From positions 1 to 64,000 of the IMG/VR virus record IMGVR_UViG_3300032038_009890: a stretch of 64,000 nucleotides of DNA; one strand, given 5' to 3'. Origin of the DNA: a virus (Duplodnaviria > Caudoviricetes). The notes beneath the pieces were generated by a model that did not search any database, was not told the origin of the DNA, and was given only the letters and a program-made list of their open reading frames with translations. Numbering within the stretch: position 1 is the stretch's first letter; each line of letters starts with the position of its first letter. The translations under genes were made by a program, and so were the position numbers. This document shows positions 7,701-31,700 of this stretch, piece by piece.

Positions 7701-10700
7701 TCTTGAACAAGTAATCCAAAGTATTAGTAGTAGCTTAAACTTTGATGTAAGCGTGTCAGGTACTGGAAGTCTTAGCAATGTAATAAGAGATATTAGGAGT
7801 ACTCTTGATTCAAAAACAATAGATTTATTTACTCATGAACTTGAAATATTATTAAGTGAAATTCAGCACTTTATGAGTGTAAACCTACGTAATAATAATA
7901 TTTTAACTGTGATTAATAGCATTGTTGCAAAGACAGATGATTTGCAGAGATTGATAGATATACTTCAGCATTCTGAGGCGCAAATTAATGCGGTTAATAA
8001 TGCGGTAAACAATGCTACTCCGAGCGCTCAGCCCTCTTCTGTAGCCGCGAATACCTCTTCTACCCCGCGCAAAACGTTTAAGCCGACTAAAAAACAAATT
8101 GCCGATGCGCAGAAACAGAAGAGAGATCAGAGGAAGCAAATCGAGGATCAAGAGAAGGCGAATAATGCAAGTAGATATGATGCGCTGACCAAGTCTCTTG
8201 ATGCTCTTACCGAGGCCCGTACCAAATATAATATTGCACTCGCCGAGTCTATAAAACGTGGAGATACTCTGCAAGCCCGCGAAATACTTTTAAAAGATGC
8301 AGAAGACAAAAAGACTGAAGCTATTAATAATGCAAAACAAGCAATGCTTGAACTATATAAGATGCAAAAAGCGGGGCAGATTACTCAGGAACAGTTTAAT
8401 AAAGCAATGACATCTTATAAAAAAGATGGAAGCCCGAAGTCATAGAGTGATCTCCAGAAAGCTAAAGATCAACAAAAGAAAGCACAAGATAAACAACTTA
8501 AACAGGAATGGGAAGCGGGTAAACAGGAATATTTAAAGAACCAGATTGCTTATTATAATGAATTGACGGAAGCTGTTAAACGTTATGTAGACATTATGAA
8601 GAGAGCAAAAGCAGGTAGACCAGAAGCAGACGATGCAACGCAATTACCTATTATTGAGGAAAAGATTAATCGGATGACGTAGGATACAGATGGCTACTAT
8701 TATGATTCTGATATGGAAGATAGGGCTTTGAAAGATCTTTATAATCTTGATGATATACTTGATCAAGTACAGCAGAAGATGGATAGAGCAAATACAATAA
8801 AATTCCAAGATAGTATGAAAAAAGCGCAGGACGCTATTTAGAAGTATTATGAATCTGCTGTAAAATTAAGAGACCTTTAGGAAGAGGCGGAAAAGAACGG
8901 TAGGAGTACTGATACAAAACCCATACGTAATGCTAGAAAGGCTATGCTGAAGAATAAACAAGATGCTGATAATTTGCTTGCAGGTGTAAATGGTATTGAC
9001 AGCTTCTAGGACGGTTCTGAAGCAAGGGCAAATTATGCTTCTGCCGAGTCTATATTTTCAAGGTATGGTGATGTTAAGTCACTGTTTGATGTGGTCGCAG
9101 ATCCCTCGAATGCGGTTGAGGTATATCATACTCTTATTAAGTATGCAGAAGAATATGTGCGTTTGACTACGAAGCAAGATTCTGGACAGACATTAATGCA
9201 CTCCGAGGTTGAAGAGATCACAAAGCTTAATGAATTGTACGATAATCTGAACAGAAAAACGACCTAGTATGCAAACAATTTACAGGGAGAAGATACGAAT
9301 CTCCCGCAAGAACTTGCTAATAGGTTAAGTGAAGCAAAACAAACCTAGGCCCAAAATCGTTTTGAAAATGTTGGTAAGAACCTTGACAAATTTAATTCTT
9401 ATGAAGATAATGCAAATCTGACTGTATGGTTGAATGATGTAAATCAAAGATATGATGATTTGAAGCAGAAGATAGATAGTGTTAACTGGTCTGGGACTAG
9501 TCAGACCGATCTTGATCAGGCCAAAGACGCTTTGCGAGAACTTAGTGATATGGAGAAAGAAGTTTCGTCTGCTTTGTCGAATGATAGATTCGTAAATATT
9601 ACTGATAAGCAGAAGAACACACTTTCTAGGCGAATGGCTGAATGGGCCTCGAATAACTCTGCGGCAAAGCACTCTATTGAGCAGATAAACGAATTACAGC
9701 AGAAATTACAAAACATAGATGATAAAGGTTCTCTTGAAGAGATTAGCAACGAGTTTGAGGCAATTAAGAGAAGAGCTTATGAGAGCGGTGAAGCGGGAAA
9801 GAGCTTTGGAGATAAGCTGAAAACGAGCTTTGGAAATCTTGGAAGATATCTCCTTTCGTTTGTAAGTATATATAAAGTAATAGACGCTATTAAACAAGGA
9901 GTATCTATTGTAAAAGAGCTTGACAGTGCGATGACAAATTTACGAAAAGTTATCGACGATACTGATGATTCTTTTGCAAACTTTTCTAAAGAGGCATTTC
10001 AAATTGCCGAAAGGCTTGGTTCTACTGCTTCATCGATAATTGATGCGGCAACAGAATGGGGACGATTAGGTTATAATCTTGAAGATAGCGCTAAATTAGG
10101 AGAGGCTTCAGTTATATATGCTAACGTTGGTGATATGGATGCCACTACTGCTTCAAATGATCTAGTTTCTGCTTTGAAAGCATATAATAAAGATGCTAGT
10201 GAAGCAATGCACGTAGTTGATATTTTAAATGAAATCGGTAAACATAAATTGCCGAATATAAAGATAGCTATATCGGTTAAAAGCTAATTAATAGTCGAGA
10301 CCGAGCAAAGACATATAATAAATATTATGTATGCGTAGAGACTGTAATGGTTTATATGGCAACATATAAATCTTCGCTATCCTCCATATAGGAGAATATT
10401 CAGTCCGTACTCACGATATATATATATATAAAACGTGAGAATATGCCAGAAATGACATGTCGCTAAATATTATAGTTTAGTAGTAACAACAAGAATAATT
10501 ATGCTGTTTCTAGCGCACAGCTTGGTGAAATCTTGGAAAAGGCTTCTTCAACATTAGCTCTTTCTGGAGATGGAATTGAGCAAGCTGTTGCAATGGGTGC
10601 GGCAATGCAAGCAATCGTGCAAGATGCTTCAGTAGTTGGACAAACATTAAAAGTTGTAGATTTAAGGCTTCGTGGAAGTAAAGTTGCTCTGGAAGAAGCA

Positions 10701-13700
10701 GGAGAATCAACTGAAGGTATGGCTAATTCTGTTTCTAAACTTAGGGGGCAGATTATGGCACTTACATCAGTTAATGGAAATCAAGGCATTGATATTATGA
10801 AGAATGACACAGAATATTATTCAATGTATGAAATACTTGAAAAAATTCATGCCGTTTGGAATGATCTTACTGATATTGATCAAGCCGGGCTTCTTGAATT
10901 GATGGCAAATGGCTTGCCATAATATATAGAAATATATATAAAGAACATTTTTAATTGCAGGTAAAACCTAAAGCTCTGCACCACAATAGCGGAGAAATCA
11001 CGCTATGAAGGTTTGAAAACGTAGAGATGTAACAATGGTAGTTCTGCAACTAAGCGCCCTAACGTAAAGCCGAGGGCGAAAGCTCACTGGCCAGACCCGT
11101 GTTGGGCTACAGACTAGAGAATAAATATCTGTAGCAATAGTCGTAAGGCGTAATCACAAAGACGTTGGTGAAAATCCATTAAATTGAAAAGGAATGCTCT
11201 CAGCACGTAATGGTGGAGATGAAGAAATGGTCGAATCTCATGTGAAAGCATGAGGTGTTTGTAAGAACACGTATGGCGTTGTGAACCATGTAAATATAAA
11301 TGAGGTAAGATTTTGCCTCTAAGATATGGAAACATATTTTTATGTACACATTTAATTGCGTTGATTACCTAAAGCTCCATGCCACAATAATCAGGAAACT
11401 AGATTATGAAGGATTAACAAGTTGGAGATGTAACAATGGTTAATTCGCAGGAAAGCGCCCTAACGTTATCCGTAGACCATATGGTATTAGTCGAGGGCGA
11501 ATCCCCAACGACTATCCCCTTTATCGGGGCTTAGAATAATGAATAAGAGTGGAAATCTCGAATATCTAAGCCAATAGGAGTACGGCCCAATCGCAAATGG
11601 GGTGAGTGAAAATCTCTTAAATGGAAATGGTGTGAACCCTACCGTGAAAACGAGGGTTTAAGAAATAGTCTTAACTTGTGCGAAAGCATAAGACTGTAAG
11701 TGGTATGTAATACGAATTGCAGTCTCACTTTGGTTGCGAAAAGTGAGGAAAAAATTGAAGAATCGGGCTTAGGGTCTAGCAGCGCTCCTAAACAACTTCG
11801 ACGAAGCAAAACAAGCTCTTGAAGATGCCTACAATGCTGAAGGTAGTGCCCTTAAAGAAAATGATCGTTATATGGAAAGTATAGCAGGCCATACCGCTAT
11901 ACTTCAAAACAGACTTCAAGAACTCGCGGCAGTAACAATCAACTCAGACTGGCTCAAAGATATCGTAGATCTTGGGTCGGGTGCAATAAAAGTCGTAACA
12001 AAATTAGTCGATACAATCGGTTCTGGAAACATTGCCGCAGGTGTTTTAATGGGTGCCATCGGAACGGCTAGTAAAATTGGACCAATCAATTATTCAAAAG
12101 GTAACGGATTTAGCATAGGTAATCCTTTTGCTACGAAGTCAGCAACTATAACAGTACAACAAGGTTTTGACAGAGGCGAAGCGTTATACGGCGCAATAAA
12201 TGATAAAGATCAAAGTCTTCTGCAAATGTATAATATTGCACAAGATGGTCAAAAAGCTAGGGATGTCATAGAAAGCCAGTGGGGTGACCTCGGCACATTC
12301 TTTGGTGGACTTAGCGAAGATGCACAAGAGCGCATCAAACCTCTCTGGAAATCGGTTGAAAATGGTTCTATGGAAGCAAAAACATTCGTAGAAAAAGCCG
12401 CCTATAGTGTCGGCATAACAATGAATAATACTCAAAAAGCCGCTGCAATAAACATGGATAAGATAAAAGGATTTGCCATGTCAACTGTATCAGCAATAGG
12501 AAATGCAGTTATTTCTATGGGAATCTCAATGCTTATTAGTGCAGGTGCAAGTCTTATTATGAATGCATTAGATGAAATTATTAATCACGCAGATAAAGTA
12601 TTAGAGCGTGGTGAAGAAGCCAAGAAAAAGATCGAAGATATATACAAATCAGTAACAGATGGACAAAAGAATATTAAAGACATTGCCATCTCTGTAAATG
12701 TAGATAATGCAAAGCTTAACACAACGAAACAGAATCTTGAGGGTATAGCAGAGACTTATGCAGATATGAAAAAAGGGGTAGATGATGTAACAAATGCGAA
12801 TAAGACTCTTTCTACTGAGAAATATGAAAAGTATCTTCAACTGAGCAAAGACCTTGCAGATCAATTCCCGAATCTTGTAGAAGGTTATGACTCTCAAGGC
12901 ACTGCAATTCTTGAGCTTAGTGGCAATGTCGAAACATGTACTCAGCAATTACAAGATATGTATGATGTCTCTTTGGATATTGCAAATCTAGAAATAACAA
13001 ATTCATTAGATAAATCTTTTGAAGCTATACTTCAGAAAGCGAAAGATACAAATAAAGAGTTGGTTGGACTCAAAGCAGAAGGTGATACATTAGATGAGTC
13101 TCTTGCTTCCGCAAAAGAAGGATATCGCATGCGAGGCGAGGAGAATCTTGCGTATGGAACTAGTTTAAGATTCCAGAATGGAGAGGTATATGATCAATGG
13201 CAAGCTATGTTCAAAGATTATATAAAAAAGACTGATCGAAATCAAGAAACTAAATTCATGGATAGTATTCAAACATAGGCGGATTCTATATTTTTTAGAG
13301 GATTAGACGATAAACCATTTTATATTCAGATACCATAGGAAGATTTCTACCAAGACCCAAATACTATATAGGCTATGCTAGATTCTCTTGACAAGGCACT
13401 TGAAATAACTGGAGACGCTGTTATTGGAGAATTGGAACATGAATCATCAGATATAAATACTAAGATTCGTGGAAAAGAAGGCGAACTGGCTCAATTAAAT
13501 AGGGATACAATGGAATTGATAACTAATTCTCTTACAACAAATTCAGATTTCATGAGTAATAATGAAACATTAGTGCAAGCAGTATTGTCTAATCTATCAA
13601 AATTTGACGTTAGTTCAATTGGAGATGAAGATCTTACTGCGTTTATATACGACAATATTCTTCAATACTTCGAAAAGATACCAAGAGAAATTCAAGATGG

Positions 13701-28700: not shown

Positions 28701-31700
28701 CACAGAATATAAGAAGCAAAATGATCTACTTCTTGATCAATATAGACGCTCTAATGAAATCTTTAAAGCACGTACACAGGAAGCCATTGCGGCAAAACAG
28801 ATTTATGAGCAAATCAAAGATAACAAGGATATTGATGAAGAGTATAAAGAAGTCGCTCTCCAAAATGTTTACGAGACCACGTAGAAGGCTGAGGATGCCG
28901 CATTCGAATTAGGTAAACTTAGGTATTCTATTATAGATGACTTAATCGAAAATACCTCAAAATACTTCTCAATAATTGATAGTTACTATAATAATGTTTC
29001 TAGTAATATGCAATCTATAAGGCAATTTGCGGCCGATATCTATGGATTCCAAGCACAAGGATCCTTAATTGGTAGGAATCTTGAACATGAACTTGACTAT
29101 TCCACTGCTCGTATGGACACAATCCGTAGCGAAATTATAAAGATACAAGAGATTGTAAAAGCGGGCGTTGAAAGTGGTGATATTGAAGAGAATAGTCTTA
29201 AATATGCGGAGTACATGAACACCCTTGAAGAGAAGCGCGGGCAATACATCAGTATGGCAAGTACAAAAGCAAATCAGCTGAAAGAGTATTTTAGTATTGC
29301 GAATAATGAGGCCACGGAGCAAATCAATAAATATGCACAAGCTTATCGTGGACTTGAGGCCGTAATGAGCAATATGAGTACCACTGGTCAGCAAAGAGCG
29401 CTTGCAGGAATGGGCTATGATTATTCATTTAGGAATCAAGATATTACTAACTGGAAAGACACAGCTTATGCTTTCGGCGAGACCTACGTTGGGCAAAATC
29501 TTGCCTTGGAGCGTAGTCTTGAGAGAAGTAAGAAGGAACTCGATACTTACCATGAGGCTGTCCTCACCACATATGCAGATCTTCAAAAGGCACGGAATGA
29601 TGAGAGTCTTGGACAGGATGCCGAAATTATGGCAATGCAGGCACATAATACCGCATTAGATAGTTATTATAAGAAACTTGGGCAGACCGCTTCGGAAGAA
29701 ATCAATGATCTGAAGAATATGATAGGTAATGTTGCTACTTATTATAGCGGGTTTATTTCATTTTATGATTCAGTATCTGATAAGGCTGAAAGCACTCGCA
29801 AGACTATAGAGAAATTTAACTCTACTGTAAATGATCAGGGTGTTGTAACCCGTGACGTTAACGGCATTATTGATACTTATAGAACACAGATTGAACAAAA
29901 CAAGCTGTCACAACAAGCACTTTCTAGATCTATAGTAGAGCAAACAAAGTATCTTGATATTATTAAAGATAAGTACGGTGAAGATACTGAAGAATATCGT
30001 GAAGGAGTTATTTCGTTAAATCAGTTATAGAATCAATATGATTCACTTACTATTAAAACAGATGAATTCTATGATGCGATGAGACAAGAAATTGATTTTA
30101 CTCCAATTGATAATGCTATTGCAAGGCTTAAGTAGTTAAATACATCTTTCTCTAATCTCAAGGAACTTATTTTAGACAATGCAAAAATAACAAAGGAAGG
30201 CGCATTCACTGATCTTGGCAAGTTATTTCTAAATATGGATCTGGCAAGCTATAACAATGCAATTAAGAACATGGATGAATTAAAGAAGAAACAGGCTAAG
30301 ATGATCGCAGACTTCCGAACTGATGAATTCTATACAGAAGAAGAGTTTTCTGCTGATATGAATAAAGTCTAGGGAGAAATCCAAGATGTTGCAAAATCCA
30401 TGCTTAGTAATATCCAGTCAATCATAAAGGCCTTGGAAGATAGGCGAAATGCAGAAGTATCATACGAGAAAGAGCTTATTGATGCCTACGAAAAAGAATT
30501 GTCTAAGAAGAAAGAAATGTCTGACTTCGACAAAACTCTTAAGGAAAAGAATAATTCCGTAAAACAAGTAGAGATGCAAATTCGTGCCCTTGAACGCCTG
30601 TTAAAACGGGCATTTTATATTAACTGCGGGAACATCCCCATAACCTTAGTATGCTACAACGTAACTGGAAACGGTAAGCGTGAATGCGGAATATGCTCAT
30701 AGCATTAGATACCATAAAAAATACTAAGTCAGGGACAACCGAGGATGCGAGGTCCTCAGACGCAACGAAGCTCCTAAACCAAATGGCATGGAGAACGCTC
30801 AACGACTATCTCGAGAGAGAGTAGGATTGCAAGCGATTGGCAATTCGAAAGATATAAACTATTTATTGTATTTGAAATACTCGGTATATCTATGTAAATT
30901 TAAATAATACAATAAATAGAAAATATAGTCTAGTCTCATATGAAAATATGAGGGATAATAATCCTTTGTGGTGTAGCGAACCATAGAAAATGTAACGAAA
31001 TGATGCAGAATCTAACGCACAACGTGCAAGACTTCAGGAACAGCTTCAGTCTGCTAAAGATGAGCGTGATAGCACTATCGAAGGTAGAGTTGTAGAGCTT
31101 CGTCAGGAGGCATTCCAGAAAGTATCCGAGGACCTTGATAAGTCCTTAGAGAAATGGACAAAAGACCTTGAAATGAATATGCTTAAACTCCCCGATCTGA
31201 TGACTGTCACTGATCATAACCTCCAAGGATACGAATAGATCGTTAATGGTGCAATGCAGGATTTGCTTGGAATATTTAATGGATTGGATTCTACGACATA
31301 TGCAGGATATAATAAGATTGCTACGGATATGACAAATGCAATTGATCAAAATGCAAAGCAAGATCTTATTGAGAGTCAAAAGATAAATGCCGAACAACAG
31401 AAAAATACAGACCTGACTTAGGCACTTTAGAATCAATTATAGGCGCAAGGTGAACGTCAAAAAGCAGAAGCACAGACGCGCGCCTTGTATCAGGCAGAGA
31501 ATTCAACACAGTATCAGAATACTAATAGTTTGCTGCAATAGATTTTGGAACTTAATAAAATTATGCCAAATGAAGAAATGCTTACACTTAATTTTAATAA
31601 CCTGCTTAAATCCATTAATGGTCAAAGCGCTACAGATGTTATTACTGGAATGAAAGAAAGCAGAGAATCTGTTGTAAATGATATTAAATCTTTCTTAAAT

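Follow-up and report, generated by a model that had tools for sequence, protein, structure and literature searches.

A group I intron probably cut after C in a phage tape-measure gene, and the C-G 5' splice-site pair as the commonest state in its subfamily

Background

By the textbook account, group I introns choose their 5' splice site by a U.G wobble at the point of cleavage, which they almost always carry, and the same rule limits the targets of trans-splicing ribozymes, which must end in U. In the Tetrahymena ribozyme, a C-G pair at position -1 lowers both the reactivity and the fidelity of the first step, and C.A is tolerated. To our knowledge, the characterised type IA2 introns of Twort and phage K use U.G. 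The introns described here resemble those of Twort and Staphylococcus phage K (type IA2) in overall architecture and in the presence of several introns per gene, and in blastn the core of one of them (intron 3) matches the lysK intron found in relatives of phage K.

In prophages of the Bacillus cereus group, the conserved part of the tape-measure (TMP) gene carries introns of IA1/IA2 type, several per gene; homologous introns are found at different TMP sites with P1 and P10 re-tuned, and different introns may share one TMP site (PMC2504315). The rule that such introns follow a U is stated by Tourasse & Kolsto 2008, in whose data recA alleles with a C at the site are intronless (PMC2504315). 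The locus studied here is like these prophage introns in that its introns are multiple, lie in the conserved TMP part, have homologues at different sites with re-tuned P1 and P10 and may share a site with other introns, and unlike them with respect to the U rule, as introns here sit after C (PMC2504315). In 1995, C.G at the 5' splice site was described for two group I introns in the cox1 gene of fungal mitochondria (Hur & Waring, Nucleic Acids Res 23:4466; cited in PMC6468297), with selection on the encoded amino acid as the proposed cause. Our case shares with them a natural origin, a protein-coding host gene and C.G in place of U.G; they were presented, however, as two isolated fungal exceptions, whereas here C-G is the majority state of a phage subfamily, at no fewer than nine targets and in one instance with a synonymous C. 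The literature searched yielded no description of a phage intron that is cut after C. What is new here is that C-G is the usual state of a phage intron subfamily, and not an isolated oddity.

Results and Discussion

Four introns in one tape-measure gene

The source record is an IMG/VR virus of 217,075 bp, estimated to be 98% complete, and the window, that is, the whole stretch of 64,000 nucleotides that was analysed, is its first 64 kb. Exons, introns and helices are given below in window coordinates, and all of them lie on the + strand. The late genes are open only when TAG is read as a residue, which we assumed to be Gln. The host gene of introns 1 to 4 is the TMP gene, in which PF10145 (PhageMin_Tail) is continuous across intron 1: the end of exon 1 matches profile positions 3-87 (51.7 bits), and exon 2 (10494-10906, ending ...GAA TTG ATG GC) matches positions 89-196 (28.7 bits, below the cut-off when exon 2 is taken alone). 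Intron 2, a group I intron of 396 nt, occupies 10907-11302, as delimited by junction enumeration, Rfam and covariation, and has G11302 as its last base. It is followed by a micro-exon of 4 nt, AGGU (11303-11306), which contributes the last base of the Ala codon and the whole Gly codon, and then by group I intron 3 (11307-11757). Introns 1 and 4 lie at 10240-10493 and 30600-30997, respectively. As had been proposed from the sequence alone, the -1 pair of introns 1, 3 and 4, unlike that of intron 2, is U.G (U10239.G10251, U11306.G11315 and U30599.G30608). When the four introns are spliced out, a single frame of 30,411 nt results, with 10,136 codons, a single terminal stop and 53 TAG. At this length the spliced TMP frame (window 1711-33620) is much longer than the usual tape-measure proteins.

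Intron 1 measures only 254 nt; it has a P1 of UCGGU/GCCGA with U.G, a candidate P7 of GACUG/CAGUC and a terminal G, and its excision joins Pfam profile positions 87 and 89. It gave no match to RF00028, even at E <= 10. Intron 4 was missed by the whole-window scan and scored 33.8 bits against RF00028 in an 800-nt stretch; its removal joins ...ALERL to NDAESNAQ..., and the TMP gene thus extends into the frame annotated from 31173. Elsewhere in the phage genome, RF00028 matches genome positions 169162-169439, 177865-178054 and 194407-194698, one of them above the gathering score (53.5 bits). With these three further matches in the 217-kb genome, the phage therefore has at least seven group I introns.

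The junction of intron 2

Homologue alignments to exon 2 stop at the Leu/Met of 10899-10904. The junctions were enumerated with exon 2 ending anywhere within 10880-10925, intron 2 ending after a G within 11255-11306 and intron 3 ending after a G within 11693-11789. This gave 2071 combinations that are in frame and stop-free with introns ending in G, 48 of which retain the spacing of the homologues, namely the 19 residues that in three of them separate the Ala of D-x-x-A from the x-N-F/W motif. Only one of the 48 contains the conserved [A/G]GK; in this combination exon 2 ends at 10906, the micro-exon is 11303-11306 and the coding sequence resumes at 11758, giving DIDQAGLLELMAGKNRAQGLAALLNNF, to be compared with ...MGGKHQGNIV and ...IGGKRNANAV in intronless homologues. 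Intron 2 is predicted to be cut after C10906, the sole junction that restores both frame and motif, and its -1 pair is C-G; the single workable junction reported in the sequence-only reading was thus upheld by exhaustive enumeration. Cuts after a U at 10892, 10894, 10895, 10899, 10900, 10914 or 10915 never yield [A/G]GK with homologue spacing. U10903 and U10910, which had been named as alternative 5' sites, have no solution at all with that spacing. The predicted ligated sequence is ...UUGAUGGC-AGGU-AAGAAUCGG..., and the exact 21-mer of this junction, as an intronless allele of this phage would carry it, was not found in IMG/VR.

Intron 2 has the helices of a group I ribozyme

The codons ATG GCA occupy 10902-10907, and C10906 is codon position 2 of Ala GCA. 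P1 is formed by AUGGC^AA (10902-10908; here and below, ^ marks a splice site, and C10906 is the last exon base) and by the internal guide UUGCCAU (10914-10920), such that A10902-A10908 pairs with U10914-U10920 and the -1 pair, C10906-G10916, is Watson-Crick. The earlier placement of C10906 opposite G10916, at position 2 of an Ala codon, agrees with the bases found at these positions and with the RF00028 alignment, which independently assigns these two bases to the columns of the consensus U and G. P10, as read from the sequence, joins the guide strand GCUU (10912-10915), directly 5' of G10916, to the micro-exon AGGU at 11303-11306 through A-U, G.U, G-C and U.G. Downstream follow the P2 hairpin AUAUAUA GAAA UAUAUAU (10922-10939), invariant in six relatives; the 5' strand of P3 (10946-10952; partner 11190-11196), 100% paired and with 4/7 pairs compensatory; the 5' strand of P4 (10956-10961; partner 11043-11048), which lies inside the subfamily motif UAAUUGCAGGUAA; the P6 hairpin CGCCC ... 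GGGCG (11055-11078; 4/5 pairs compensatory); the P7 strands GGCCA (11089-11093) and UGGUC (11228-11232); P8 (11198-11219; 4/7 pairs compensatory); and the P9 hairpin (11237-11254), taken from the Rfam alignment and covariation. The interval 10902-11232 first assigned to the feature has its right end at that of P7, and the intron runs on to 11302.

The group I core is thus found in intron 2, with its P3-P8 and P4-P6 domains and with P7 crossing P3. P7 is fully paired (G11089-C11232, G11090.U11231, C11091-G11230, C11092-G11229 and A11093-U11228), and all five pairs stand as they had first been drawn; G11089-C11232 is expected to be the guanosine-binding pair. Between P7 and the 3' strand of P3, where subgroup IA (Twort-like) introns have extra helices, lie about 96 nt (11094-11189); they are partly deleted in two relatives (L011 and L012), and folded alone they are no better than shuffles (z = -0.9). 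At gathering thresholds, Rfam reported nothing in the window. With E-value thresholds, RF00028 matched 10897-11254 (37.6 bits, E 2e-7 over 2.4 kb, against a gathering score of 50), leaving the large peripheral insertions of intron 2 unaligned, and gave a second match at 11297-11692 (37.5 bits), corresponding to intron 3.

Covariation was assessed in six aligned clade members on a hand-drawn P1-P9 structure, with P7 as a pseudoknot. Of the 399 cells in these six introns, 98.5% are paired, and 27 of the 67 pairs have changed on both sides; sliding the structure by 1-3 columns lowered the pairing to 30-48%, and 0 of 500 shuffles attained as much pairing or covariation. The helices with compensatory changes are P1, P3, P5a, P5c, P6, P7, P8 and P9. 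Within P1, the -5 pair is A-U, C-G or G-C (U-A in the truncated L021) and the -4 pair is U-A or A-U; while these neighbours covary, all six members have C-G at -1. The G11089-C11232 pair of P7 is likewise invariant in the six.

Judged by these patterns, intron 2 is almost certainly functional, and the earlier view of an intron that is maintained and not decayed finds its support in the compensatory changes of eight helices. Loss of splicing, which would leave TMP as separate polypeptides or as a broken gene, is the least probable of the readings we considered: the unspliced frame does end at TAA 10920 and the Rfam score does fall below threshold, but the core helices are all intact with compensatory changes among relatives, the junction brings back the 10,136-codon frame together with the motif that is best conserved in the Pfam domain, and with the 4-nt exon so placed a downstream fragment would have no context for a start codon.

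Occupancy of the site in relatives

Related introns at the same TMP site, which the sequence-only reading had thought worth seeking, were found (L011, L012, L015 and L116). Among relatives, this site shows every pattern of occupancy: (i) intron 2 alone in the IMG/VR contig L012, where GUGGC^...UUG^AGGAAAAACG gives VAGKTR, (ii) intron 3 alone in L013 (GCG GGU^ ... CUG^AAG AAC CGU), (iii) introns 2 and 3 both present, with a 4-nt exon between them, in L011 and L015, and (iv) neither intron 2 nor intron 3 in Brevibacillus phage Sundance and in MT837120. Such natural occupancy variants are better evidence for the junction than enumeration. GGC also precedes the homologues of intron 2 that are inserted at two further TMP sites. 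In the first (L001, which is MT835469), CAGGC^...AAUG^AAGUUU gives QQA-SLTELIAGKR, and P10 pairs AAGUUU with AAACUU at the same position as in intron 2; the second (L006) reads AAGGC^...AAAG^AUUUAAU. In the phage collection, no cultured-phage record matched P3-P6 of intron 2, the sole match being MT835469, an unannotated gut-phage contig.

Downstream of P9, ORFs that are probably homing-endonuclease-like are present in L001 (MT835469, 3390-5050) and in L116; the window's intron 2 has no ORF after P9. MT835469 contains another ORF-bearing intron within a ...KTISMRIRG... motif. In L009 and L052/L090/L095/L118, a different intron type interrupts the TMP motif that holds intron 2, at a point one base further on (GCA GCU^ or GCA GCC^); opposite G, one lineage has U as the -1 base of this intron and another has C. 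The L052 type (GCAGCC^) was considered as a further case of a synonymous C and left uncounted, as its 3' site is ambiguous between two Gs and its P1 contains a mismatch.

C-G is the commonest -1 state of the subfamily

The subfamily was defined by the P4/J4-5 motif UAAUUGCAGGUAA, which was scanned for in IMG/VR and in the species-genome collection. The raw hits were mostly chance matches; those with a J8/7-P7 motif downstream were kept, leaving 74 distinct introns. The subfamily appears to be found mainly in TMP genes, in phages and prophages that have gut Clostridia-like hosts. P1 was read by a rule of our own with fixed geometry (guide base 13 nt ahead of the P2 tetraloop, with four exon pairs beneath it and +1 paired), under which 46 of the 74 introns were clearly readable and 28 were not. 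The -1 pair is C-G in 29 of these 46, over nine different exon 5-mers, although the 29 are not independent events, many of the contigs coming from one IMG/VR sample. The other states are U.G (7/46), U-A (7/46, plus 2 rows that the rule scored as A-U but that on inspection have U-A with the register off by one base) and C.A (1/46). C-G is therefore not peculiar to intron 2, being the commonest -1 state among the readable members. The earlier proposal of a natural variant with altered substrate recognition is supported, but as a broader property of the subfamily, and not as one specific to intron 2. A control scan with the P4 motif of the intron-3 type returned 5 loci only, too few for a contrast.

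The single C.A intron (L137) interrupts the TMP motif that also holds intron 2, two codons further on, after ...GGT AAG AAT AGG GC^A, and its C at the cleavage position lies opposite A between flanks of four and three Watson-Crick pairs. Because the U.G and C.A cases fall at the exact structural position of C-G, they support the placement of the cut. They also bear on a junction slid by one base, with the cut after A10907 (an A-U pair) and the intron ending at A11303. Since intron 2 and its 3' exon both begin with A, this register gives an identical spliced mRNA and is excluded only by the terminal-G rule, and in one relative (L015) both registers end in G. In 5 of the 6 contexts, however, the slid intron would end in A and not in G (the window, L011, L012, L001 and L006), and the G-C pair of P7 that binds the terminal G does not vary; moreover, the subfamily wobbles stand at the C-G position and not one pair further in, as does the C.A mismatch of L137. 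We regard a slid junction as very improbable, and retain the cut after C10906.

The 74 introns place the P7 of intron 2 in context as well. P7 is GACUA/UAGUC in 61, GACCA/UGGUC in 8, GGCCA/UGGUC in 2 (the window intron and L116, at the same TMP site) and GGCUA/UAGUC in 1; the other 2 rows probably have mis-assigned strands. The change from U-A to C-G is a recurrent compensatory variant, and that from A-U to G.U beside the G-binding pair is rarer, though not unique. The P7 that had been singled out as a variant is thus real and paired, but belongs to a recurrent polymorphism.

Coding constraint does not account for the whole subfamily

The sequence-only reading had held that the C is constrained by coding. 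At the window's Ala codon and at the other GC^A sites that were checked, where a U would give Val, such a constraint is plausible. As a general cause it fails on the prophage of Thomasclavelia cocleata DSM 1551 (L161), in which GCA GGC^AAAUGUUUGCCUG ... ACG^AAA CAA AGA gives EIIAGKQRANQV, and the spliced product EIIAGKQRANQVAALI keeps the correct 19-residue spacing. Here the -1 C is the synonymous third base of the Gly codon GGC, yet it is paired with G, so that coding constraint cannot be the general cause.

The same observations weigh on the possibility that C-G is a forced, suboptimal compromise which keeps Ala/Gly at the price of slow splicing, and which may limit TMP or need a protein helper. 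This account fits the window, where U in place of C10906, the second base of GCA, would encode Val; it also fits the A or G seen at this residue in all homologues and the prevalence of GC^A Ala codons among the C-G sites checked in the clade, and for two fungal introns the idea is already present in the title of Hur & Waring 1995 (PMC6468297). In the T. cocleata prophage, however, GGU would have given U.G at no coding cost, the C being synonymous; C-G is the majority across nine target sequences; and U-A occurs as often as U.G in the subfamily, which argues for indifference and not for a tolerated defect. We consider a forced compromise unlikely, if less so than a slid junction. With U-A about as frequent as U.G and with a synonymous C-G case, the subfamily looks indifferent to the wobble, and not as if it had been forced to abandon it. 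Because the C-G state is so common, the suggestion that the intron is rate-limiting for TMP synthesis looks unlikely.

Proposed mechanism and significance

Intron 2 is very likely a functional group I ribozyme of putative Twort-like (IA) type, inserted in the Ala codon of the ...LMA-GK... motif and with C-G at -1. The chemistry of intron 2, like its splicing rate, is inferred and would follow the ordinary two steps of group I splicing: exogenous G, bound at G11089-C11232 of P7, would attack the bond after C10906; after this first step AGGU (11303-11306) would dock on GCUU (10912-10915) as P10; and G11302 would then enter the G site, and the exons would be joined. Across the subfamily, the cut site is probably fixed by its constant position within P1 and not by wobble recognition; the guide base stands 13 nt ahead of the P2 loop, and four exon pairs lie beneath it. 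Given the effect of C-G in the Tetrahymena ribozyme, splicing of intron 2 may be slow or need help.

By a narrow balance, we favour the view that a sizeable subfamily has given up U.G as the determinant of its 5' splice site, with most members cutting after C-G and others at U-A. If this is true, nature would offer a counter-example to the base pair that is best conserved in this ribozyme class; diverse introns working after C (and with U-A) would show that the site can be chosen without the wobble. It would also supply a ready-made set of ribozymes for targets ending in C and so a wider range for engineered ribozymes. One member resides in a cultured strain, as the T. cocleata DSM 1551 prophage, and is open to testing at the bench. 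Splice-site finders that require a U will mis-join such phage genes.

The close packing of introns 2 and 3 has features of its own. The AGGU at 11303-11306 is the P10 partner of intron 2 and also most of the exon strand of intron 3 P1, so that the two ribozymes would compete for it. The last base of intron 2, G11302, pairs with C11319 in intron 3 P1, and a splice that ran from the 5' site of intron 2 straight to the 3' end of intron 3 would put the downstream sequence out of frame.
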